This document shows, in pieces, positions 23,690 through 45,336 of a stretch of DNA of 64,000 bases (positions are counted from its first letter, which is position 1; each line of letters starts with the position of its first letter). The notes below the pieces were generated by a model, which searched no databases, was not told where the DNA came from, and worked only from the letters and a program-made list of their open reading frames with translations. The stretch spans positions 96,001-160,000 of the forward strand of contig CAWETW010000003.1 of NCBI GenBank assembly GCA_963812155.1. The letters are read 5' to 3'. Made by a program: the position numbers and the translations under genes. This DNA is from Vulcanimicrobiota bacterium (lineage in GTDB: Bacteria > Vulcanimicrobiota > Vulcanimicrobiia > Vulcanimicrobiales > Vulcanimicrobiaceae).

Positions 23690-24853
23690 TTAGTATATAA
23701 ACCCGTTGCGGACGGCGGGACGCGCAAACTTGAAGCCGCCGCCGCTGACGGTGTAGACGTAAATGTTCGGAATCAGCGGATCGCCGAATACGTTGAAGTT
23801 GTACTGGCCGACGAGCGTCGTAATCGTAGGGCTGCGCTGCATGGATGAGAGCAGCGAGACGCGCGTGTAGGCGGCGCTGCGGCGGGATGCGGAGATCAGC
23901 ACTTGCGCGGCGGCGTAGCCGTAGGCCGAGAAGGCCGTAATCGGACCGACTTCGCGTTGGAAGTCGGTCAGCAGCCCCACCGCGCTGGGGATACGCTCGA
24001 GCGGCGGAAGCGAGGATGCGACGTAGGCGCCGTCGAGCGTTTTGGAATACGTCGCCAGCGTGTCGCCGTTGTAGAAGCCGTCGCTGGCGCCGAAATCGCC
24101 GCGATAGCCGGCCAGCCGCAGCGCTTCGGCGAGCGGGCCGAGACCGGCCGTCGTTCCGCAGAGAAAAACATAGCCTGGGCTGTGTTGCAGCACCGTGCGC
24201 GCTGCCTGCGCCGGATCGAAGCCCTTGACCGGGAAAAGCAGTACGTCGGCATCGTGGCGTTCGGACTTCGCCTCCTGCACGAAGCCACGCGCCACGTCGT
24301 AGCCATAGTCGCCGTCGAGCGAGACGGCGAGCGCGGAGACGCCGCGCTTTTCCGGTAAGACCGTCGACGCGAACAGACGTCCCGAGGTGCTGTCCTTTGC
24401 CGGTAGGCGAAAGACGTTGTGATAGTTGCGATTCGTGACCGCGTCGGCGGTAACGGTCGGAACGACGAGCGCAAAGTTGACGTTAGCGTAGCGCGACAGC
24501 GCGGCGAGCGTCATGGGCGCGGTGAGGTTGCCGACGATGCCGATCACGGTGGAGTCGGCCGCGGCGACGCTGGCGTTGGTGGCCGCGAGTGCGACGTCGT
24601 TGCGATCGTCGTACGCGCGCATGCCCCAGACGCGCGAAATCGGTGCGGTAAACCGGTTCGTTTCGTCGACCGCGGCCTGCACGCCGCGCACGACCTCCGT
24701 GCCGTACTTCTCCAGCGGTCCCGAAAGCGTGACGTTGACGCCGATCGTGACCTGCTGCAGAAACGCCGGGTTGTTGTACTGCGCGCGCGCGGGCGCCGCG
24801 AGCGCGCTCGCGACGGCGCCGCCGGCTGCCGCGACGAACGCCGACCGCTTCAT
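23690..24853 (-). CDS. Branched-chain amino acid ABC substrate-binding protein (LivJ/LivK-like)
   Basis: Signal peptide; IGVNVTLSGP, YDDRND, VFRLPAKDS, DYGYDVA, YGYAAAQ. Confidence 0.85.
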   Translation of the reverse strand: MKRSAFVAAAGGAVASALAAPARAQYNNPAFLQQVTIGVNVTLSGPLEKYGTEVVRGVQAAVDETNRFTAPISRVWGMRAYDDRNDVALAATNASVAAADSTVIGIVGNLTAPMTLAALSRYANVNFALVVPTVTADAVTNRNYHNVFRLPAKDSTSGRLFASTVLPEKRGVSALAVSLDGDYGYDVARGFVQEAKSERHDADVLLFPVKGFDPAQAARTVLQHSPGYVFLCGTTAGLGPLAEALRLAGYRGDFGASDGFYNGDTLATYSKTLDGAYVASSLPPLERIPSAVGLLTDFQREVGPITAFSAYGYAAAQVLISASRRSAAYTRVSLLSSMQRSPTITTLVGQYNFNVFGDPLIPNIYVYTVSGGGFKFARPAVRNGFIY

Positions 24854-25716
24854 GCCGGAGCTCCCGGCGCGTGCGCGTAGCTCGCAAAGGTCGTCGCAAG
24901 GAACACGACCGAAAACGTCATGTTGGCGATGAAGATGCGCTCGTTGAGCACGAAGACGTTTTCGGCGACGCGGAACGCGCGATCTTCGTAAACCACCAGC
25001 AGCGCGGCCGCGGCAACGCCGGCATAGTAGAGCGGCGCGGCGTGTGCGGCGGCGCCCGCCAGCGCGAGCAGCGCGGTCATCGCGACGTGGAGTGCGATCG
25101 GCAGCGTGCGGGCGCTGCGTTCGCCGAATCGCGCCGGAAGCGATCGGATGCCCTGCGCGCGATCGACGCGTAGATCCATCAGCGCGTAGACGATGTCGAA
25201 GCCGGCCACCCAGACGGTCACCGCCGCAAACAGCAGCAGCGCCGCCCAGCTCACGCGGCCTGCGATGCCGATGTAGGCGCCCAACGGAGCGAGTCCGTCG
25301 ACCGCCCCCAGCACGAAATGCGTGACCCAGGTGACGCGTTTGCAAAGCGGATAGAGCAGGACGCCGGCGCCGGCGATCGGCAGCAATCGAACGCAAAGCG
25401 GATTGAGCATCCACGCCGCCCACAGCAGCACCGCGAGTCCGGCAACGATTGCTGCGAGCATCGAAAGGGGCGAGAGCGTGCCGGCGGCAAGCGCGCGCCG
25501 CGCGGTGCGCGGATTGCGTGCGTCAATGTCGCGATCGAAATACCGGTTGGCGGCCATTGCCGCGGTGCGGGCACCCAAGACCGCGAGCGTGATCCAGCCG
25601 AGGGCCGGCAACGGCGGAAGACCGCGCGCGGCGATCAGCGCGCCGGCGTACGCGAACGGCAGCGCGAAGAGCGTGTGCTCGACGCGAATTTCCCGTAGGA
25701 AGAGCGCGGCTTTCAT
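24850..25716 (-). CDS. ubiA: UbiA-family prenyltransferase (MqnP-like)
   Basis: IRVEHTLFALPF, AMAANRYFDRDIDARNPRT, GFDIVYALMD. Confidence 0.9.
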   Translation of the reverse strand: MKAALFLREIRVEHTLFALPFAYAGALIAARGLPPLPALGWITLAVLGARTAAMAANRYFDRDIDARNPRTARRALAAGTLSPLSMLAAIVAGLAVLLWAAWMLNPLCVRLLPIAGAGVLLYPLCKRVTWVTHFVLGAVDGLAPLGAYIGIAGRVSWAALLLFAAVTVWVAGFDIVYALMDLRVDRAQGIRSLPARFGERSARTLPIALHVAMTALLALAGAAAHAAPLYYAGVAAAALLVVYEDRAFRVAENVFVLNERIFIANMTFSVVFLATTFASYAHAPGAPA

Positions 25717-27242
25717 CACGGCGCGCCGTCCGGGCGTAAGAGCCGCGCGAGCGCCGGCGGTCCCTGCCCCGACCAATCGTCGGTGCGCAGCGCGCCGGCA
25801 AGGCCTTCGAGACCGTACTCGCGCCAACGTTTGCTCACGAGCGCGCGCACCTTCGCATCCATCACCATATCGGGCGGCCACTCGCGCGCGTACCCTTCGG
25901 CGGCATCCTTGCGGGTCGCATCGATGCCCATTTTGGTGCCGTAGGCGATGTCGTACGATCCGTGATCCAAATCGTCGACCGGTCCCGGCATCGTCACGAG
26001 GTCGCGATCCGGAGCGATATTGTTGAGCACGAACCAGGCGACGCTGCGCGTGTCCTGCACGTCGACGTCGGCGTCGACGACGATCAAGACGCGCGTCAAC
26101 ATCATCATGTGACCGAGTCCCCAAAGCGCGCTCATGACTTTTTTTGCATGGCCCGGATACGCTTTGCGGATCGAGACGATTGCGAGGTTGTGGAAGCCGC
26201 CTTCGACCGGCAGATTCATGTCGACCACTTCCGGCAGCACGAGTTGAAGCAGCGGCAGAAAGAGCCGTTCGGTCGCCTTCCCCAGCCACGCGTCCTCCAT
26301 CGGAGGTTTGCCGACCACCGTCGCCGCGTACACCGGGTCGCGCCGGTGCGTGATGCACGTGAGATGAAACGTCGGATAGCGGTCGGCGAGACTGTATACG
26401 CCGGTGTGATCGCCGAAGGGACCTTCGACGCGCAAGTCGCGATTGTCGACGTAGCCTTCGAGCACGAACTCCGCTTCCGCGGGAACGAGCAGATCGACGG
26501 TGCGAGCCGGCGTCAGTTCGACCGGCCGCCCGCGCAGCAAGCCGGCAAAAGCGAATTCGTCGAGCAGGGGCGGCAAGGGCGCCGTTGCGGCGTACGTCAG
26601 CACGGGTTCCGTTCCGATTGCAACCGCGACCGGCACCTTGTCGCCCCACGCGGCGGCGTGTGCGCGCCCTTGTTTGTGACGTTGCCAGTGCATGCCGGTT
26701 TCGCGTGCGTTGTACACCTGCATGCGATACATGCCGGCGTTGAAACGTCCGGTCTGCGGATGTTTGGTGATAACGAGCGGCAGCGTGATGAATGGGCCGG
26801 CATCGAGCGGCCACGTCGTAAGAATGGGCAGTTGGGTGAGATCCGGATTGCGCGTGACGACGTCGTGAACGGGAGCGTTGCGAACGATCTTCGGCGTCGC
26901 GTTTGCCAGCGGTGCGAGCCGCATCAAGGCGCCGATTTTTTCGCCCAGCGACGATCCGGGCGGCGCGATGTCGACGAGCCGCCGTATGCGCCCGGCGGCC
27001 TCGTCGAGATCGGCGGCATCGAGCGCCATCGCCATGCGTCGCCGCGTGCCGAACTGATTGGTGAGCACCGGGACCTTCGATCCGGCGGGGCGGGCGAACA
27101 GCAGCGCGGGTCCGCCGGCTTTGACCACGCGATCCGTGATCTCGGCAATCTCGAGATACGGATCGACGCGCGCTTGCACGGTGTGGAGTTCGCCGGCTTT
27201 GCGCAGCGCGCCGATGAAGTCGCGCAGGGACGAGAAGGGCAT
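25716..27242 (-). CDS. ubiD: UbiD-family decarboxylase (menaquinone, MqnL-like)
   Basis: EIAEITDRVVKAGGPALLF, NAGMYRMQ, MHWQRHK, EGPFGDHTG, VGKPPMED. Confidence 0.93.
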   Translation of the reverse strand: MPFSSLRDFIGALRKAGELHTVQARVDPYLEIAEITDRVVKAGGPALLFARPAGSKVPVLTNQFGTRRRMAMALDAADLDEAAGRIRRLVDIAPPGSSLGEKIGALMRLAPLANATPKIVRNAPVHDVVTRNPDLTQLPILTTWPLDAGPFITLPLVITKHPQTGRFNAGMYRMQVYNARETGMHWQRHKQGRAHAAAWGDKVPVAVAIGTEPVLTYAATAPLPPLLDEFAFAGLLRGRPVELTPARTVDLLVPAEAEFVLEGYVDNRDLRVEGPFGDHTGVYSLADRYPTFHLTCITHRRDPVYAATVVGKPPMEDAWLGKATERLFLPLLQLVLPEVVDMNLPVEGGFHNLAIVSIRKAYPGHAKKVMSALWGLGHMMMLTRVLIVVDADVDVQDTRSVAWFVLNNIAPDRDLVTMPGPVDDLDHGSYDIAYGTKMGIDATRKDAAEGYAREWPPDMVMDAKVRALVSKRWREYGLEGLAGALRTDDWSGQGPPALARLLRPDGAP

Positions 27243-27297: not shown

Positions 27298-28225
27298 TTA
27301 CGGCGTGGGCTCGTGCTCCGGAATGGATGCGACGAAGCGCGCACCTCCGCCGTTGGATGCCGTCAACCGCGACCGACCCGGCATGCGCCTGCGCGATCCA
27401 GCGGACGATTGCCAAGCCGAGGCCGGTTCCCGCGCCGTCATCGGATCGGCGGTAGAATCGTTCGAAGATGCGCTCCCGGTCGGCCGGCGGAATGCCGGCA
27501 CCGTCGTCCTCGACGACGATTTCGCAGCATCGCCCGTTGCGTTGCGATGCAATGATCACCGACGTGCGCGCATGGCGCACGGCGTTGTCGAGCAGATTGC
27601 GTGCGAGTTCGCGCAACCGCCGTTCGTCGCCGTCGACGATGGCGCTGACGGCGAGACTCTCGATGCGAACGCCGCGCTCGCGCGCGGACGAAGCGACGTC
27701 GCGCGCGCTGCGCGTTACGACGGCCGCCAGATCGACGGGTTCGCATTGCAGCACGCCTTGGCGCGGCTGGCGGGCCAGCGTCAGCAGGTCGCCGACGATC
27801 GCAGACGCCTCGAGCGCTTGCGCGGCAATCTCTTCGAAGGCGGCGCGCATTTCGGCGGGTTCGGCGCTGCCGGCCGCCTGCGCGACGCTGGCGATTGCCG
27901 CCAGCGGCGAACGCAGTTCGTGTGCCACGTCCGAAGCGAAGACGCGCTCGCGTTCGCGCGCCGCAAAGATCGGCGCGAGCGTCGCACGCGCGAGCGCGTA
28001 GGAGGCCGCGCCGACAGCGATGACGAGCGGCACGTCGAGCAACAGGATCGTGACCAGCACGCGCCGCATCGCGGTCGCCATGGCGGCGTGGCCTTCGGGC
28101 GTGTCCAGCGCCGGCTGCAGCAGCGACGCGTATTCCCGCATCACGAACGCGAACGCACCCGCGTCGAGAACCGCGAGGACGCAAATGAAAATGAGGAGAT
28201 AGAGAGCGGAAGTGCGCGCGATCAA
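27298..28225 (-). CDS. Sensor histidine kinase (2 TM; frameshift near 27360 in the last strand)
   Basis: H-box VAHELRSPL, N-box NLLDNAVRH, DDGAGI, FERFYR, GTGLGLAI; the true tail GGGARFVASIP lies in another frame ending at 27298. Confidence 0.88.
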
Positions 28226-28890
28226 TTGCGCAAGCGGTACCCGACGCCCCAGACCGTCTCGATGAAGCCTTCGTCGCCGAGCTTGCGCAGCTTACGGCGG
28301 AGCTGGCTCACGTACACGTCGACGATATTGCTGGAACCCTCGAAGTCATAGTCCCAGACACGCTCGAGAATCTGCGCGCGCGAGAGCGCGATGCCGGCGT
28401 TCCGCGCCAGCAGTTCGAGCAGCCGGAATTCGGTGGCGCCGAGATCGAGTGCCTTGCCGTCGTAGGATGCGTTGCGTCCGCCGACGTCCACGCGCAGTTT
28501 TCCGACCTCGATCGACGAAACGACCGGACGGTCGCCGCGGCGCAGCAGCGCGCGCAGGCGAGCGATGAGTTCGTTCTCGACGAACGGCTTTACCAGGTAA
28601 TCGTCGGCGCCGCAGTCGAGTCCGGCGACGCGATCTTCGACCGCGTCGCGCGCGGTGAGCATCAGAATGGGCGTGCGCACGCCTTCGGCACGCGCGCCGC
28701 GCGCTACCGCGAACCCGTCGATGCCCGGAAGGCCGACGTCCACGATTGCGGCATCGTAGTTCTCGCCGACGAGGCGGTCCAATCCGGTGCGTCCGTCGGT
28801 CACGATGCTGGCGGCGAACTTCTGAGCTTCGAGCATCGAGCGCACGGCGCGCGCGATCGGGAGGTTATCTTCAACGACCAAGATTCGCAT
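28222..28890 (-). CDS. OmpR/PhoB-family response regulator
   Basis: ILVVED, DVGLPGIDG, LTARD, ADDYLVKPF, VDVYVSQLRRKL, TVWGVGY. Confidence 0.95.
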   Translation of the reverse strand: MRILVVEDNLPIARAVRSMLEAQKFAASIVTDGRTGLDRLVGENYDAAIVDVGLPGIDGFAVARGARAEGVRTPILMLTARDAVEDRVAGLDCGADDYLVKPFVENELIARLRALLRRGDRPVVSSIEVGKLRVDVGGRNASYDGKALDLGATEFRLLELLARNAGIALSRAQILERVWDYDFEGSSNIVDVYVSQLRRKLRKLGDEGFIETVWGVGYRLRN

Positions 28891-28897
28891 GCTTCAC

Positions 28898-30052
28898 CTA
28901 ATACTTCCACGGGCCGGGGAAAGCTACTGTTACGGCGCCTCCGAGGGTGGGATGCTGATCGGGAGCGCCGATCGGGGCGACCTCCTGAAGCAGGAACCTA
29001 AACGGTGCGATCATCACGGCACCGTAGTAGACGAAATCGCGGGTGACGATCGGGTTCGCCTGCGCATCGTACCGAACGCCGAGATACGCGTGCGGAATGG
29101 GATAGACTTTGAAGCGCACGTAACCTCCGCTCGACGCTTGCCTCGTCCCGAAGCCGTCGGCGTTGCTGTCGTTGCCCCACCACTGCTCGGCTTGAAGATC
29201 GACCGGTCCGAGGGTCGCGTGCCCGAGCAATCCATACCGCGAGTACGTGTCGTTGAAAGCGGTGCTTCCGGTCGGCAAGATGTGTCGCACGCCTTCAAGC
29301 GCCTCACCGCCGCCGTCTAACTCGATGCTCCCCTTGGAAAAGAGGCCTTGATTGAGCCAGACGCCGACTTCCGGCGTCGAAACGTAGGTCGTCAAGCCCG
29401 TGTTCACCGGCTTGCCCCCGTAGGGCGCGCCCTGAAAGTCGCCGACGGCGAACGTCAGATTGGCGACGAGATTTCCAATCGTTCGCTGATCCCACACGCC
29501 CCATCGCGGCGACGACAACGGCAAATCGTTGAGTCCGACGTGCGCGCCGTAGTACCCGTACTGTTGCAGGTCGTCGAGGCGCTCGCCCGGCGACTGCGCG
29601 AGCGGCAGTTCGAACAACCCGAGCCGATATTCGGATTTCGTATGTGCATTGTAGTCGGTGAGAAATCCGAGATAGAGCGCGCTCGGACCGCCGCCCGCAC
29701 CGAGGCTGTAGTGCATGTAGAGCGAAATGTTGCCGACGTCGGTATTACCCAGCAAGATGCCGCCGGGCGTCCAACGCCGGGTTCCGGCAGCGGGATCCTG
29801 CGCGTACGACATTTGATAGCGAATCGCGAACATCGTCGTGCCGTGCTTTTCGATGGGAAGCCGGTACCCGTGCATGCGGAAGTAGTTGCCGAATCCGTTG
29901 AGCTCCGGCAAGACGCTGTGGCAGGCACCGCAGTGCAGCCGATAGCGCTGAGCGAAGACCGGAATCGCGCGAGCGGGCGCGGAGCAGAGGGCCGAAAACA
30001 ATATCGCCGCGACGAGCGCGGCGATCGCGAGGCGCGATTCTCTATTGTGCAA
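28898..30052 (-). CDS. Cyc2-like monoheme cytochrome c - beta-barrel porin fusion
   Basis: Signal peptide, then AIPVFAQRYRLH-CGACH-SVLPELNGFGNYFRMHGY (AxPxFAxx, CxxCH, PxL, FG..F...GY pattern of Cyc2), followed by amphipathic, aromatic-rich beta strands. Confidence 0.75.
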   Translation of the reverse strand: MHNRESRLAIAALVAAILFSALCSAPARAIPVFAQRYRLHCGACHSVLPELNGFGNYFRMHGYRLPIEKHGTTMFAIRYQMSYAQDPAAGTRRWTPGGILLGNTDVGNISLYMHYSLGAGGGPSALYLGFLTDYNAHTKSEYRLGLFELPLAQSPGERLDDLQQYGYYGAHVGLNDLPLSSPRWGVWDQRTIGNLVANLTFAVGDFQGAPYGGKPVNTGLTTYVSTPEVGVWLNQGLFSKGSIELDGGGEALEGVRHILPTGSTAFNDTYSRYGLLGHATLGPVDLQAEQWWGNDSNADGFGTRQASSGGYVRFKVYPIPHAYLGVRYDAQANPIVTRDFVYYGAVMIAPFRFLLQEVAPIGAPDQHPTLGGAVTVAFPGPWKY

Positions 30053-30530
30053 CGATGGCTCCTCGCATGGGTGCACCGTAGTGGTAGAAGCAGCCGTAGA
30101 GATAGGTGCCGGGCTTATCGACCTTGACCGTTTGCGATGACTCCCCCGCCTGCATCGCGCCGCTGGTCCAGCCGCCCGACAGTGTCGTTCCGGTCTGGTT
30201 CAAAGCCTTACCGCTAAACGGGTAGGCGTTCGGGAATTGCGTCTCGTTTTTACTTTGCCCCGGCGTAATCGATGTGGAAGTATGAGCGAATCCGTCGCTG
30301 TTCATGAACGTCACCGTGTCGTCGACCTTGACGTCCAGGACGGGCGGCTTCATGCCGCCGCTTTGGCCGTAGGGCGTTTGAACCGGAGCGTTCAGCGTAA
30401 GGTTGACGTCGACCACGTGATTGACGCCGGAAGAGCCGCCGCCGCCTCCGCCCGAGACGCCGATGCCGTTGGGCGTGCAGCCCGCGGCCAGCACGGCTGC
30501 GACGAACGTTGCGAGCAACGTGCGCGTCAT
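30042..30530 (-). CDS. Cupredoxin (type-1 copper) lipoprotein
   Basis: Lipobox LAAGC; DTVTFMNSDGFAHTS; KPGTYLYGCFYHYGAPMRGAIV (C-x2-H-x4-M). Confidence 0.88.
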   Translation of the reverse strand: MTRTLLATFVAAVLAAGCTPNGIGVSGGGGGGSSGVNHVVDVNLTLNAPVQTPYGQSGGMKPPVLDVKVDDTVTFMNSDGFAHTSTSITPGQSKNETQFPNAYPFSGKALNQTGTTLSGGWTSGAMQAGESSQTVKVDKPGTYLYGCFYHYGAPMRGAIVAQ

Positions 30531-31093
30531 CGGCCCACTCTGTGCGGCGTCATCGCGTGCGCTTCGGCGAGAATATCGCTTGTGAGATTGTTGGATGCCA
30601 GCAGCGTTTTCGTCAGCGTGCCGCGCGCGTCGAAGACGTAGACGAACGTCGTGTGCGCTTCGCGATAACCGCTCTTCCCCGGTTTGGCGATCACGCCGAA
30701 CGCGTTGAGAACGTCGTTGACGTCGGGGCTATGCCCGCTGGCGACCAACCAATAGCGAGAATTTGCGGAGAAGCGTTGCGCCAACGCCCGCATGACGCTC
30801 GGCGGGTCGTGCTGCGGATCGAGCGTGATCGTTAACAGTCGCGTCGAGAGCGCCTGGTGCGCGATCTCCGACGCGGCTTGTGAGAACTCCGCGTTGACCA
30901 ACGGACACGCATCGCTGCAATGCGCCGACACGAACGTCACGATAAGCGGGCGCCCTTCGAGCGAGCGCAGCGTGAACGTCCTTCCGGTCTGGTCGACCAG
31001 TTGCGGCGTCGCCGGCGGCGCCGGCGCTGCCGTCGCCGGAGCGACGTGCAGCGCGGCAATAAACGCCAGCATTCCTAGGAGCATGGGACGCAT
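30527..31093 (-). CDS. SCO1/SenC-family copper chaperone
   Basis: LVDQTGR, HCSDACP (CxxxC), ITLDPQHD, conserved His in AHTTFVYVFD. Confidence 0.9.
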   Translation of the reverse strand: MRPMLLGMLAFIAALHVAPATAAPAPPATPQLVDQTGRTFTLRSLEGRPLIVTFVSAHCSDACPLVNAEFSQAASEIAHQALSTRLLTITLDPQHDPPSVMRALAQRFSANSRYWLVASGHSPDVNDVLNAFGVIAKPGKSGYREAHTTFVYVFDARGTLTKTLLASNNLTSDILAEAHAMTPHRVGR

Positions 31094-31665
31094 CAGCGGA
31101 CGAACGTCGGCCCCGGCGTGGCCTTGGCGGCAACGCGGATGACGTCTTGCATTCCTTCGTGATAATGGAAGGCGCATCCGATGAGGTACGTTCCCTTATC
31201 CGAAAGCGTCACCGTCACCGATTTTCCGGGACCGATGGATCCGCTGGCGTAGCCGAGACCGAGGATCCCATTACCCATCGGCTGAGTCGAGAGCGTCGGA
31301 TTCTTCGGGAAATTCGCCGGCGGATGCTTCCGCTTGGCTACGACGTTGAGCGTATGCGAGTAGAGTTTGGAGAGGTTCTTGATCGTTACTACCGTGCCGG
31401 GTGGAAACGCGAGCACTTGCGCCGTCGTCGATTGCGTGAAACCGCCGACGAGTCCCCACGACGGGTCTTGCTTCGTCTTGACGCCTTCACTGGGCAGTTC
31501 TTCGCCGATCGTTTTGGCCGGCAGCGTGAAATGCAGTTCGGTTTGCGGGCCGAGCGATTGTACGAACGATGTTGCGGGAGTAGCGTTCGACGGCATGTTG
31601 CCGCCGCCGCACGCCGCCAGGGCGCACGCGATGACCGCCAACGCGGCGCCACCGGATTTTGTCAT
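31093..31665 (-). CDS. Cupredoxin-like lipoprotein (paralog A)
   Basis: Lipobox LAACGG; HTLNV; GTYLIGCAFHYHEGM; GAGGAG RBS. Confidence 0.8.
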   Translation of the reverse strand: MTKSGGAALAVIACALAACGGGNMPSNATPATSFVQSLGPQTELHFTLPAKTIGEELPSEGVKTKQDPSWGLVGGFTQSTTAQVLAFPPGTVVTIKNLSKLYSHTLNVVAKRKHPPANFPKNPTLSTQPMGNGILGLGYASGSIGPGKSVTVTLSDKGTYLIGCAFHYHEGMQDVIRVAAKATPGPTFVR

Positions 31666-31751
31666 AGGATGATTCTCCTCGAGTAGTGAGGGTGCGTGAT
31701 TGAGCGACGGTAGCAAGCGTTCGTGAAGAAAGTCTAAACCGAGTACGCGTT

Positions 31752-32405
31752 TTAGTAACTGTAGCCGGTCGGATAACCGCTCGGGCTCGGTCCGGTCGAA
31801 GGCGTTGCCGTTCCCTTGGGCGGCGGCGACGCTTCTTTTCCTGGAACGGCACCTTTCTTCACGACGAGCACGTCCTTCATGCCCTCGGAGTAGTGGAACG
31901 CACAGCCGATCAGGTACGTGCCGGCGTCCTTGAGCGTAATCGTCACCGAATGGCCGGGTTGTATCACGCCGCTGCGATAACCGGTGCCCATGATGCCCTT
32001 CCCGTTCGGACTCGTCAGAAGGTTCGGCTTACTGGGAAAATGCGCGGGCGGGCCTTTGATCTCCGCAACGACGTTGAGCGTGTGCGGCGTCGTTTTCGAA
32101 AGATTGCGCAACGTAATTTTCGTGCCGGGTGGAAAACCGAGCGTTTGCGAATATTGCTTTTGCGTAAATCCGCCGATCGTGGCTTTCCAGAACGGCGACT
32201 TGAACGTTCCAAGACCGGCGCTTGGAAGCTCTTCGCCGACCGTTTTCGGGGGAAGAATGGCTTGGACGGCGATGTCGGGTTCGAATGCCGGCAGCGTCAC
32301 ATTGCCTGCAGCTGGTACAACGCCGGCTCCGCCACCGCGCGTTGCGCAGGCGGCGAGGACGCCGGCCGCGACGATGGCGGCGAAGGCTATGTGCTTATTG
32401 ACCAT
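31752..32405 (-). CDS. Cupredoxin-like lipoprotein (paralog B)
   Basis: Lipobox LAACA; HTLNV; GTYLIGCAFHYSEGM; shares GEELPS, GGFTQ and FPPGT with paralog A. Confidence 0.8.
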   Translation of the reverse strand: MVNKHIAFAAIVAAGVLAACATRGGGAGVVPAAGNVTLPAFEPDIAVQAILPPKTVGEELPSAGLGTFKSPFWKATIGGFTQKQYSQTLGFPPGTKITLRNLSKTTPHTLNVVAEIKGPPAHFPSKPNLLTSPNGKGIMGTGYRSGVIQPGHSVTITLKDAGTYLIGCAFHYSEGMKDVLVVKKGAVPGKEASPPPKGTATPSTGPSPSGYPTGYSY

Positions 32406-32456
32406 GGGTACACCTCTTTCTTCTGCTCGACGCTATCGCGCCGGCATGAATAAAGA

Positions 32457-33263
32457 TTAAATCCGGATGGAATCGCGCATTGCGGTGGCCAGATTCTGCA
32501 GCGCCGGGTCGGTCGCGTCGCGCGACGCCTGCACGAACGCCTCGCGAGCTTCCGCGCGCCTGCCTTGCTTGAGAAGCAAAGCACCCAAGGCAAGTTGAGC
32601 GCGCGCGTAGGTCGGGGCCAAGACGAGCGCGCTGCGCAGCTCGCGTTCGGCTGCGGCGGCGTTGCCGAGGCGTTCTTCGGCAAGTGCGAGGTCGTAGTGC
32701 GCGACGGCATATGCGGGATTCGCGCGCAGGAGCTTTCCGAAGTCGTCGCGCGCCGTGCGGGCGTCGCCGGCGCGCAGCGCGACGATGCCGCGGGAATAGA
32801 GGGCCCGGGCCGATTCCGGATCGAGCGCGACGTAACGGTCGGCAACGGCGCGCGCCTCGTTGACGTCCCCGCGCGCGAGGTCGACGGCGACCAGATTTGC
32901 CATGGCCGCGAGAAATCCGGGATCGAGGGCGATCGCTGCCCGCAAATTGCGCGCGGCATCGTCGTAACGGCCCAAATTGGCATACGCGACGGCCGCGTCA
33001 TAGCGCGCCGTGGACCCCTTGGGCTCGGGTGGATTCAGCGACACGACTCGCTCGAACTCGGCGGCCGCGGCGGCAAACTTTCCCGCCGAAAAAGCCTCGA
33101 GCCCAAGGCGGAAGCGCTCTTCGATCTCCCGCGAGACCGCCATTTCTCGCAGCGCCGGCACGGACGTGGTCCGCGGAACGGGCGTCTGCATCGGGTATGT
33201 TTGGGCAAATGACCTCGCGGTCGTGAGCCCGCCCGCGAGCAAAAGGAGAAGCGCAACCCGCAT
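32457..33263 (-). CDS. Secreted TPR-repeat protein
   Basis: Signal peptide plus about 6 TPR-like repeats (A..LDP, YAVAHYDLA). Confidence 0.85.
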   Translation of the reverse strand: MRVALLLLLAGGLTTARSFAQTYPMQTPVPRTTSVPALREMAVSREIEERFRLGLEAFSAGKFAAAAAEFERVVSLNPPEPKGSTARYDAAVAYANLGRYDDAARNLRAAIALDPGFLAAMANLVAVDLARGDVNEARAVADRYVALDPESARALYSRGIVALRAGDARTARDDFGKLLRANPAYAVAHYDLALAEERLGNAAAAERELRSALVLAPTYARAQLALGALLLKQGRRAEAREAFVQASRDATDPALQNLATAMRDSIRI

Positions 33264-33272
33264 TGCTTATTT

Positions 33273-33530
33273 CTAGGGCGTGTGAGGACCGGACGGCAGC
33301 TCCGCGGCGCGCCATTCCGCAGCCCCGGCGGCGCGTTCGGGGCGGCACTCCCAGCCCTTGCGGCCGGCCGAAGTGATCGGACCGAGCAGCAGGGGCGATT
33401 CGGACGCGACGATCTGCCCCGCAAGCAGGTCTTCGAGGGAGCCGGCGCGTGCCAGAGCGGCCGCACCGCAGCTTAATGCGCCTGCCAGGAGAACCGCTCC
33501 GAGCAGCCGCCGCACCAAGGCGCTTGACAT
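33273..33530 (-). CDS. Small exported hypothetical protein
   Basis: Signal-like N-terminus; TATAAT 8 nt upstream of the ATG. Confidence 0.45.
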   Translation of the reverse strand: MSSALVRRLLGAVLLAGALSCGAAALARAGSLEDLLAGQIVASESPLLLGPITSAGRKGWECRPERAAGAAEWRAAELPSGPHTP

Positions 33531-33564
33531 CGGTTTCAATTATAGCCGAAGTTCTAAGGAATCC

Positions 33565-35406
33565 GTGAATCGCACCGGCATTTTCGCAACGGTCCTGCTG
33601 GCGTGCTCTCTGCCGGCGGTCTCTGCCGGAGCGCAGACGGCTCTGGTGGTCGGCTCCGTGAGGGATCAGCACGGGGCTGCCGTCGCGCGCGCCGCCGTGA
33701 CCGCCTACGACCGATCGGGCGCTCGACTTGGCGCCGCCACGACCGACGCCGCGGGCACCTTTGCGCTCGCGGCCGATGGGGCCGTACGGCTCGCCATTGC
33801 GTGCCGGTATTGCCTGCCGGTCGCACTTCCGGTCCAAGAGGGCCAGCCCGCGGTGGCCATCGTACGTCGCTTCGACGCGCTCTTCGACGACTCGCCGTCA
33901 CCCGGGGATCTCGCGAATCTGCCGTACGCGCACGTCGAGTCGGCCGTGGCGCTGCGTCCGTTTGCGCTGCTGCGTCAAACGACGACCGGAGTGCCCGGTT
34001 CGCAACTGAGCGATCGCGGCTTCTCCCCGAGCGATGCGCTGCTGATCGACGCCGGCGTTCCCAACTACGACTTCGCGGACGGAACCTCGCCGTACACGAC
34101 GATTCCGCAAGCCTACCAGCAGAGCGGCACCATCGCTCCGCCGGAAGACGCGTTCACGTACGGGGACCGCGCCGGTTCGGGCATCGTGACGCTGGATCCG
34201 TTCGGCGACGGCAACGCGGGCGCGGCGTTGACCGGCGGCGATCAAACGCTCCGGCTCGAAGCCGGCTCCGATTTCGCGCGCCTCGTCGCCGCAACGTACA
34301 GCAACGCATCGGAGTCGCGACAGCGCGCCGACGCCGCCCTTGCGGTGCCGCTTTCAACCGCGCAGACGCTGTCGTTCTCGGGGGGCACGTCGCAGGGTCG
34401 CGAGTACGGCGATCCGGCGTCGGCGCTCGACTCGAGCTTCAGTTTCGCGCGCGCGTCGTTCGCCGACGTGCAGCCGAACGCGAACCTTTACGCAAACTAC
34501 GTCGCCGATCGCGGCGGTTACGGCGCGGCGCTCGAGGGAACGACGCTTTCCGACGTGTGGTCGGATTCGAACTTCACGGTGGGCGCGCGTTCGCGCGGTC
34601 CCGTCTCGATCTTCGCCGATGCGTCGGATCGCCTGTCAACCGGCATTTACGACGATTCCTCGTATGGTATCGCGCGCATTGCCGGGACGCTGACCCAGAC
34701 GCGCTTCGATGCCGGCATCGATGCGAGCGGCAACGACGTCGACGTCCGGGCCGGCATCGGCTGGTTCGGCGTCGGGTTCACCGGCGGATCGTACGGCACG
34801 TCGGTGCCGTCCAACGCGCAGCTCGCGACGCCGTCGATTCTCGTGCGGCTCTTCCCCGATTCGAAATGGAGCGCGAACGTCGGCGCGAGCGGATCGTTTA
34901 CCCTGCCGAACCTGTGGCAACAGTACGCACCGGACGGCGGATACGACGGCTTGGTGTACGATCGCAACGCGCTGTATGCGGCGACGCTCGCGTACACCGA
35001 TAACGCACGCTTGCGCGTAGCGGTCGAAGGCGCATCGCAGCACGTTGCGGGATTCACCAACGGGACGGTCACGTCGGCCGGCGCCTCGGTGGCGTGGCAG
35101 ATTGCGCCGGCGATTTCGATGCGCGCGTGGACGATGCACGTCGACGATACCACGGTCGCGCCGGTGCCGAATCCGTTTTATCCGGCCGGATCGCCGGCAA
35201 CGGTCAATGCATTTTGGCTGACGTACGACAACGCCGCTTTGCGCGTCGACGCAATCTATCGCCGCGATGTGCTCAACGGTGCACCGTTCGAACATATCGA
35301 CGGCGACGTTTCAGGGCCGATTAACGGGCGATTGCGGTGGTACGCCGGCGTTGAAGATCGCCAGCGCACCACCTATCTCGACGTGGGTCTACGGTTTAAC
35401 CCTTAG
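33565..35406 (+). CDS. Outer-membrane TonB-dependent-receptor-like protein with N-terminal carboxypeptidase-regulatory-like domain
   Basis: Signal peptide; VVGSVRDQHGAAV...TTDAAGTF; plug-like LLIDAGVP...YGDRAGSGIV; beta-strand C-terminus ending TYLDVGLRF. Confidence 0.65.
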   Translation: MNRTGIFATVLLACSLPAVSAGAQTALVVGSVRDQHGAAVARAAVTAYDRSGARLGAATTDAAGTFALAADGAVRLAIACRYCLPVALPVQEGQPAVAIVRRFDALFDDSPSPGDLANLPYAHVESAVALRPFALLRQTTTGVPGSQLSDRGFSPSDALLIDAGVPNYDFADGTSPYTTIPQAYQQSGTIAPPEDAFTYGDRAGSGIVTLDPFGDGNAGAALTGGDQTLRLEAGSDFARLVAATYSNASESRQRADAALAVPLSTAQTLSFSGGTSQGREYGDPASALDSSFSFARASFADVQPNANLYANYVADRGGYGAALEGTTLSDVWSDSNFTVGARSRGPVSIFADASDRLSTGIYDDSSYGIARIAGTLTQTRFDAGIDASGNDVDVRAGIGWFGVGFTGGSYGTSVPSNAQLATPSILVRLFPDSKWSANVGASGSFTLPNLWQQYAPDGGYDGLVYDRNALYAATLAYTDNARLRVAVEGASQHVAGFTNGTVTSAGASVAWQIAPAISMRAWTMHVDDTTVAPVPNPFYPAGSPATVNAFWLTYDNAALRVDAIYRRDVLNGAPFEHIDGDVSGPINGRLRWYAGVEDRQRTTYLDVGLRFNP

Positions 35407-44806: not shown

Positions 44807-44833
44807 ATGAAGCGGCGTTTATCGTCGCTTCAT
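44807..44833. terminator. Stem-loop downstream of the PfpI gene (possible terminator or regulatory site)
   Basis: ATGAAGCGGCG-TTTAT-CGTCGCTTCAT, 11-bp stem with one G-U pair. Confidence 0.4.
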
Positions 44834-44889
44834 CTGTGTTCGTCACGATGATGCTCCTTGAAGTCCCAAACAGAAAGGAGCAAGACCCC

Positions 44890-45336
44890 ATGACGATGCA
44901 ACATTTTTGCGCAGTCTCGGCGCTCGTAATCGCCTCGGCGTCGCTCGCCGGTTGCGCAAGCGGCACGCAGCCGTCCGCGACGAACGCCCTTCCCCTATCG
45001 AACGTTTCCCAAGTCACCCCGATGGACGGTCAAAACTGCGACGGCAGCGAGGGCGTCAAAGTCGCGCCGTGCCGATTGACGTTCGATGCAAAACATCCCG
45101 GACCCAAAGAGGTCGTCGTCTCGAGCGGAGACAACGACCGGCTCGCCATCAAAGAACGCGATGACTGCGCGGCACGAAACGTCGCGACCGTCACGCGGAT
45201 GTCGAACCATCGCTACGTCGTCACGGCGGGAAGCGCGAGAGGAACGTGCGTGGCAAACTTCGTTGCCGGCATGCAAAACGACGACCACGGGCATCGCGGC
45301 GCCGACCTCACCGTCGTTAACGTGCCGGAGCGGTAA
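44890..45336 (+). CDS. Hypothetical lipoprotein (Ig-like, 4 Cys in the mature part)
   Basis: AAAGGAG RBS; lipobox LAGC. Confidence 0.7.
   Translation: MTMQHFCAVSALVIASASLAGCASGTQPSATNALPLSNVSQVTPMDGQNCDGSEGVKVAPCRLTFDAKHPGPKEVVVSSGDNDRLAIKERDDCAARNVATVTRMSNHRYVVTAGSARGTCVANFVAGMQNDDHGHRGADLTVVNVPER

Follow-up and report, generated by a model that had tools for sequence, protein, structure and literature searches.

Operon layout and conservation

We analysed a 64,000-nucleotide stretch of a Vulcanimicrobiota genome, G000 (contig C3, positions 96001-160000; hereafter the window), for a minus-strand operon that encodes a cytochrome-porin, three type-1 copper lipoproteins (cupA, cupB and cup3), an SCO copper chaperone and a two-component system. 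An earlier note on this DNA had described seven co-oriented genes in the order cupB, cupA, SCO, cup3, porin, response regulator and histidine kinase, whose start and stop codons overlap or abut at 31093, 30530/30527, 30052/30042, 28898/28890 and 28225/28222. A check of the open reading frames (ORFs) bears out both the order and the junctions, with all seven genes on the minus strand. The seven genes stand as members of the operon but its upstream limit does not, as a previously unlisted 85-residue ORF (33273-33530) and a tetratricopeptide-repeat (TPR) gene (32457-33263) head it and accompany the kinase gene. The kinase gene likewise stands, except for its end at 27298: the window's frame does not stop there, and an extra base near 27363 shifts the final ~21 codons. 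Because the kinase ends normally at the shifted site in the 64 relatives listed, and because one contig in each of two short-read runs (the best of which may be the window's own sample) lacks the extra base, this frameshift is probably an assembly error. The operon contains a divergent Cyc2-like porin-cupredoxin pair, real and conserved, within a readable envelope regulon. Its features are the following, in window coordinates.

33565-35406, plus strand: divergent outer-membrane protein resembling a TonB-dependent receptor, with a CarboxypepD_reg domain (Pfam), plug-like region and barrel
33539-33569, minus strand: promoter box variant ahead of the operon (tandem repeat, 9 nt, then TATAAT)
33273-33530, minus strand: 85-residue membrane-anchored or secreted protein with a conserved motif, candidate kinase accessory
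32457-33263, minus strand: secreted TPR protein, accompanying the regulator-kinase pair across three families
32430-32461, minus strand: promoter box before cupB (pattern match)
31752-32405, minus strand: cupB, accessory type-1 copper lipoprotein (His...Cys-x2-His-x4-Met)
31707-31738, minus strand: promoter box before the cupA-SCO-cup3-porin-regulator-kinase run (pattern match)
31093-31665, minus strand: cupA, accessory type-1 copper lipoprotein, 53% identical to cupB
30527-31093, minus strand: SCO1/SenC copper chaperone with signal peptide, CxxxC and His
30042-30530, minus strand: cup3, plastocyanin-like type-1 copper lipoprotein, constant partner of the porin
28898-30052, minus strand: Cyc2-like monohaem cytochrome-porin, predicted 16-strand barrel, TTG start, 384 residues
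28222-28890, minus strand: OmpR-family response regulator (Response_reg and Trans_reg_C), likely binder of the box
27298-28225, minus strand: histidine kinase (HisKA and HATPase_c) with two transmembrane helices and a ~27-residue periplasmic loop; one-base frameshift near 27363

The association of these genes is not a matter of chance, since cup3 adjoins the porin gene in all 80 loci surveyed, some of them cut by contig ends, and most of the others accompany it in at least 71 (response regulator 75, SCO 74, kinase 73, TPR protein 71). The divergent TonB-like gene (68), cupA (54) and cupB (48) are less constant. At the level of whole genomes, 44 of 60 relatives from three families carry a porin orthologue (E<=1e-45), and cup3 is the gene next to the porin in 44 of 44 carriers, spread over three families; the counts take in the unpublished genomes G035, G048 and G059 (carriers) and G033 (non-carrier). 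Synteny in related genomes had been proposed as a check of the module, and the cluster proves to be conserved. Cup3 and the porin are its fixed core. The regulator-kinase-TPR unit is coherent across the three families, lies 20-500 kb from the cup3-porin pair in many genomes and is kept even without the pair in G027, G031, G042 and G049. The TonB-like receptor, used as a query, finds matches in 26 of the 36 genomes of the window's family and in none of the 24 others, and its linkage to the operon is limited to that family. The closest named relatives of the porin (at most 96% identity) come from Ca. Tumulicola and other Eremiobacterota (Vulcanimicrobiota) genomes, and the hosts are soil bacteria of the phylum Eremiobacterota that keep the cup3-porin pair under a common promoter signal.

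The cytochrome-porin and its copper partner

The signal peptide (judged by eye) and the haem motif at the porin N-terminus are as previously described. There is a single N-terminal CxxCH, whose C13, C16 and H17 are invariant in 119 sequences, and a PxL follows it (PEL or PDL within the full spaced motif) in 93 of the 98 sequences from the loci. The precursor has 384 residues, above the 365 expected of Cyc2, and the mature protein 356. Family searches say little, as the sole Pfam match is a weak one to Porin_O_P (0.013), NCBIfam gives no family, and sequence and profile searches of the PDB return nothing meaningful. The AlphaFold2 model of the mature porin, built on 119 aligned sequences (pLDDT 88.9, pTM 0.86), has 16 barrel strands and a small N-terminal haem segment, in agreement with the barrel of about 16 strands that the earlier note had anticipated. 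Foldseek with this model returned general porins, and a wide structural search placed OprP (2o4v) at the top with Z 23.3 and a root-mean-square deviation of 3.4 over 293 residues, OprB-type and other 16-strand porins lying within 1-3 Z of it. OprP is also the template reported for Cyc2 in the accessible text of Keffer et al. (PMC8406198). With its N-terminal CxxCH and a 16-strand barrel of the OprP kind, the porin is, on the predicted structure, a Cyc2-like haem porin; we take it to work like a Cyc2-type haem porin and do not file it as a Cyc2 iron oxidase.

As far as the accessible part of the same paper describes Acidithiobacillus ferrooxidans Cyc2, Mariprofundus Cyc2PV-1 and Leptospirillum Cyt572 (PMC8406198), the present porin resembles them in its signal peptide, N-terminal CxxCH, motif spacing, PxL, length above 365 residues and predicted 16-strand OprP-like barrel, whereas it differs in reading FAQRY or FAERY instead of FAR[QK][TY], in its shorter barrel and in belonging to a separate, well-supported clade. 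The variant AxPx[FY]A[QE]RY is found in 95 of 98 locus porins. A profile search of 1.84 billion representatives gave 4286 matches at E<=0.001, and the strict Cyc2 motif, AxPxFAR[QK][TY], is present in 11 among the 150 distant matches listed, several of which span most of the profile (P0278, 5e-45; P0295, 1e-36). In a FastTree phylogeny of 112 unnamed or proxy sequences (a subset of alignments A2 and A4 plus full-length CxxCH matches), the operon porins group in one separate clade (support 1.0), and two further copies from G000 fall in the paralogue clades next to it. The Cyc2-like family of Burkholderiales and Rhodanobacteraceae (L127, A4) has a homologous haem domain (hhalign P 98.6), and a HiPIP (high-potential iron-sulfur protein) gene lies upstream in Caballeronia and, by sequence, an SCO-like ORF nearby in Ralstonia. 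That family differs in having c-type cytochromes downstream where the present porin has a cupredoxin partner, in a barrel that cannot be aligned by profile, and in a conserved Met that aligns with an invariant Arg of the present porin.

Six of the 15 long porin matches scanned carry C-terminal fusions, to cytochrome c domains in P0309, P0312, P0318, P0329 and P0385 and to a cupredoxin in P0315. In P0253 and P0257, which belong to separate clusters, a methyl-accepting chemotaxis protein stands in frame with a cytochrome-porin, through fusion or read-through. As for the paralogues in G000, the second (C3:717247-718939; L111:8248-9940) has upstream of it a cupredoxin gene whose product bears a CuA-like motif, CxxxCxxxHxxM, and in P0315 these two kinds of protein, cupredoxin and cytochrome-porin, are naturally fused; near it there are, by sequence, an extracytoplasmic-function sigma/anti-sigma-like pair, a cupredoxin and a metallophosphoesterase-like gene. 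The third (C5:14221-15342; L112) is co-oriented with a YceI gene, and a gene for a monohaem cytochrome c lies ~3.5 kb away.

All three cupredoxins match Pfam Copper-bind, only cup3 above the cut-off. Judged by its sequence, cup3 is a type-1 cupredoxin, with a plastocyanin-like domain and a His, Cys, His and Met set of ligands (H83, C147, H150 and M155) that is invariant in 96 sequences. Its profile matches 38 PDB entries, including plastocyanin, pseudoazurin, amicyanin and auracyanin, and rusticyanin is absent both from these and from the 18 matches of cupA. The SCO protein matches SCO1-SenC above the cut-off (5.8e-21) and its CxxxC is kept in 75 of 76 sequences, which supports the proposed copper chaperone. 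The type-1 copper ligands are intact. The three cupredoxins are not one relay: cup3 is constant, and cupA and cupB have boxes of their own and are often absent or encoded elsewhere.

Promoter box and candidate sensory unit

Aligned promoters of the operon display a tandem repeat followed by a -10-like element. The 9-nt variant of this box precedes the operon in 67 of 71 orthologous promoters, and the box lies before the detached cup3-porin pairs of family f3 in 10 of 10 loci. An iterated position weight matrix drifted onto coding sequence and was dropped for a fixed pattern, TTYA-N7-TTCA-N11-TA-N3-T, for which the reversed pattern and altered spacings served as controls. In 61 genomes the pattern has 233 matches versus 28 for the reversed control; in G000 it has 9 versus 1, with 0-2 at each of 24 other spacings, the Y having been allowed after the G000 matches were known (TTCA alone gives 6 in G000). 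The operon in the window has three sites, at 33569 (the variant), 32461 and 31738. Because 12 genomes that lack the regulator unit nonetheless show 17 matches versus 4 in the control, related regulators may share the box.

The nine exact sites of G000 precede cupA, cupB, a HiPIP gene, the gene of a Lipoprotein_15 protein and those of five secreted proteins (312-459 residues), one of them a PQQ-like beta-propeller; seven of the nine boxed genes have a lipobox by a loose rule, under which 281 of 2749 genes are flagged. The top site is that of the HiPIP, which matches NCBIfam Feoxidase_Iro at 1.4e-13, below the cut-off, and a boxed HiPIP-cup3-porin operon is present in four genomes of the genus Tumulicola. 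Among 94 sites inspected in other genomes, 63 of which were picked from genomes rich in sites and about one fifth of which look like noise, the recurring targets are cupredoxin lipoproteins, HiPIP, a beta-propeller-like family (15 members from all three families, one from the unpublished G048), YceI, Lipoprotein_15, phosphoesterases and response regulators, with Hsp20, Ferritin_2 and DUF305 in addition. The orthologous response regulator of G055 itself has the box upstream. When one mismatch was allowed, the box was absent upstream of 14 other genes tested, including CopB/C/D-like genes, three multicopper oxidases and the porin paralogues. The earlier note had given the module a regulator of its own. 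The common box fits control by the adjacent response regulator, which we infer to bind it, but this regulator is not private to the module, as the box precedes many envelope genes.

The highest scores of the regulator and kinase are to RppA/RppB and heavy-metal models and stay under the cut-off, as do those to every CusRS, CopRS or RppAB equivalog. Where those systems have a periplasmic sensor domain, the sensor region of the kinase is a conserved loop of ~27 residues between two transmembrane helices. Since the loop is so short, accessory sensing by the 85-residue and TPR proteins can be envisaged. The former has a conserved LLGPI-x3-GRxGWxCxPE with one conserved Cys and lies upstream of the TPR gene in 70 of 94 loci. 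It matches no Pfam or NCBIfam family and has 33 homologues, all named ones from Eremiobacterota, and was not detected in the 14 regulator loci of family f3. A second copy lies inside the operon of one Tumulicola genome (L041:5908-6258). According to the accessible text on Pseudomonas aeruginosa BqsRS, an autoregulated system of the OmpR family, its tandem repeat has an 11-bp period over the -35 region, as here, with another repeat sequence, and an RExxE string is found here in the TPR protein of one family (PMC4358008). RExxE occurs in 63 of 75 TPR proteins of the window's family. We set it aside as a weak lead, and Fe(II) sensing is not established, because the string is not in the kinase and is absent from the other two families.

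A conserved boxed secreted family of ~380 residues (alignment A5: L166, L170, L146, L152, L211, L214, L225, L233, L239 and others) has a GDxNPYG motif, with weak NHL/SGL matches in three members only. On the plus strand of the window, a 148-residue lipoprotein without a Pfam match (44818-45333) has upstream a weaker box that falls short of the exact pattern. The RNA run X13 contains, at low depth, a small number of short contigs identical to parts of cupA, cupB and the porin gene, which we do not take as evidence of transcription. Runs with small word shares were left out as evidence on habitat.

A proposed inward electron conduit and its rivals

Genes, motifs, linkage and the common promoter box are observed, and the porin fold is predicted; on this footing, and with moderate confidence, we read the cup3-porin pair as a conduit that carries electrons inward, to high-potential carriers and on to O2. 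A dissolved extracellular reductant would give electrons to a haem attached at the CxxCH inside the outer-membrane barrel, and these would pass inward to lipid-anchored cup3, which may bind the porin. CupA, cupB and HiPIP could act as further high-potential carriers, SCO would load the copper, the caa3 oxidase would be the electron sink, and the 85-residue and TPR proteins might feed a signal to a kinase almost without a sensor domain. This reading is favoured because of the HiPIP-cup3-porin operons, the Iro-like boxed HiPIP, the cytochrome c and cupredoxin fusions, and the respiratory genes of the host. The earlier note had found neither a periplasmic cytochrome c nor a terminal oxidase in the window. 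Elsewhere, G000 has genes for a caa3 oxidase, for a Rieske/cytochrome b complex and for cytochrome c maturation of the system II type (ResB/CcsA). A run of tatA, tatC, resB, ccsA, Rieske, cytochrome b and cytochrome c genes, named by sequence except for CcsA, lies ~9 kb past the window end (C3:169135-174947). The A. ferrooxidans rus operon (cyc2-cyc1-cup-coxBACD-rus), as given in the accessible parts of PMC10654088 and PMC13741234, shares the haem porin, blue-copper carriers and an aa3-type sink, and the regulon here likewise includes an Iro-like HiPIP. It differs in that the present operon has no c4 cytochrome or oxidase, its cupredoxins are plastocyanin-like lipoproteins, it includes SCO, TPR and small proteins and a two-component system, and its hosts mostly lack RuBisCO.

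Several results weigh against this reading. The strict Cyc2 motif is found in none of the 98 porins from the loci, and the Burkholderiales/Rhodanobacteraceae family aligns with only the N-terminal 75 columns of the porin. No Met or His is conserved enough among 115 orthologues to be a universal sixth haem ligand (no Met is conserved, and His42 and His293 vary in distant members), and the ten Arg that are invariant in the same set would fit an anion-preferring pore better than one for Fe2+. Most boxed genes code for secreted proteins, beta-propellers among them, for which no redox role is apparent, and the cox, Rieske and resB genes have no upstream box, even with one mismatch allowed. RuBisCO (E<1e-50) was found in 4 of 44 carriers versus 5 of 16 non-carriers, counts in which kin are not independent and genomes are incomplete. 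Fe(II), the substrate that the earlier note had suggested, is not supported, and iron oxidation is not shown, because the strict motif is missing, the porins form their own clade and 40 of 44 carriers have no RuBisCO found; Fe(II) nevertheless is the single most likely candidate donor, a choice that is tentative at best. Neither RuBisCO nor NiFe hydrogenase was found in G000, whose 84% completeness leaves absence unproven, nor RuBisCO in 14 congeners. On the RuBisCO results and carrier counts, autotrophic iron oxidation is unlikely for most carriers. As the hosts look like aerobic heterotrophs, the conduit would provide supplementary energy or oxidative disposal, not autotrophy.

The same secreted targets and unboxed respiratory genes would also fit an envelope-stress or redox-homeostasis regulon, in which conduit and carriers, switched on alongside repair and secreted proteins, buffer or detoxify periplasmic redox-active metals, quinones or phenolics with no meaningful energy gain. 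Boxed YceI, Lipoprotein_15, Hsp20, Ferritin_2, DUF305, phosphoesterases and beta-propellers fit such a regulon, as do the tiny kinase loop with its accessory TPR and Cys-containing proteins and the retention of the regulator-kinase-TPR unit in the four genomes that lack the pair. Directed electron transfer is indicated instead by the cytochrome c fusions, by the HiPIP operons and by the fact that cup3 and the porin always go together, and we consider the regulon explanation unlikely. Copper handling, with the porin and TonB-like receptor importing copper that cupredoxins and SCO store or deliver under a copper-responsive two-component system, would account for up to four copper proteins plus SCO in the operon, the divergent receptor, and best scores, albeit below cut-off, against RppA/RppB and heavy-metal models. 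The box of Synechocystis CopR is also said to be a TTTCAT direct repeat of the same period, a likeness that could not be confirmed, as the available passages of PMC4890671 and PMC4182526 contain no sequence. Type-1 copper sites, however, serve electron transfer; the CopB/C/D-like operon and the three multicopper oxidases of the genome are unboxed, the kinase has no periplasmic metal domain and HiPIP is co-regulated, which makes this account improbable. Still less probable is a redox sensor, whose haem-to-copper chain would signal the redox conditions outside the cell to the kinase, by way of the TPR or 85-residue protein, rather than supply respiration. It would suit the co-transcription with the regulator and kinase, the sensor-less kinase, the single conserved Cys of the 85-residue protein and the two distant porin homologues in frame with a chemoreceptor (P0253 and P0257), but because the pair is often far from the regulator, and the regulator exists without it, the cup3-porin pair behaves as a target, not an input.

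If the inward conduit is extended to the class as a whole, it becomes regulated electron uptake in soil heterotrophs, from haem porin to blue-copper and HiPIP carriers without a cytochrome c4, with Fe(II) or an anionic reductant of metal-organic or humic nature as the energy-yielding donor (lithoheterotrophy), under a new four-part switch and a genome-readable box. The proposed four parts are a sensor-less kinase, the TPR protein, the small Cys protein and the regulator; we hold this extension to be possible but doubtful. Cyc2-like genes serve as iron-oxidation markers, and the function of divergent members is open, according to the accessible text of PMC8406198. The present clade offers a defined test case: cup3 is the fixed partner and HiPIP an alternative carrier, the regulator box is predicted, and the hosts are mostly without carbon fixation. 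Should the porin oxidise Fe(II), common acid-soil heterotrophs take part in iron cycling; otherwise, Eremiobacterota called iron oxidisers from marker genes have to be reassessed. Through the box, the signal that induces the genes can be sought by transcriptomics or with a reporter. The earlier note knew of no such module in this lineage; the available portions of earlier papers already report a Cyc2-like gene in an Eremiobacterota metagenome-assembled genome (PMC8357290) and predict Baltobacteraceae to be iron oxidisers (PMC13594681). A term search of the available text of PMC9758169 finds Cyc2, cupredoxin and HiPIP unmentioned. No description of the operon or box was found in the literature searched, which covered few subscription papers and, for context, parts of PMC13741234, PMC10654088, PMC12442345 and PMC4358008; the supplements of PMC8357290 and PMC13594681 may list the genes.

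Elsewhere in G000, the unboxed operon of CopB-like, CopC and CopD-cytochrome c genes (named by sequence) lies at C1:784685-788541, and a second SCO homologue near C1:794000. In the window, the kinase is followed on the minus strand by UbiD, UbiA-like and UbiX-like genes (23690-27242). UbiD is linked in 57 of the 80 loci, a linkage that probably reflects chromosomal neighbourhood.

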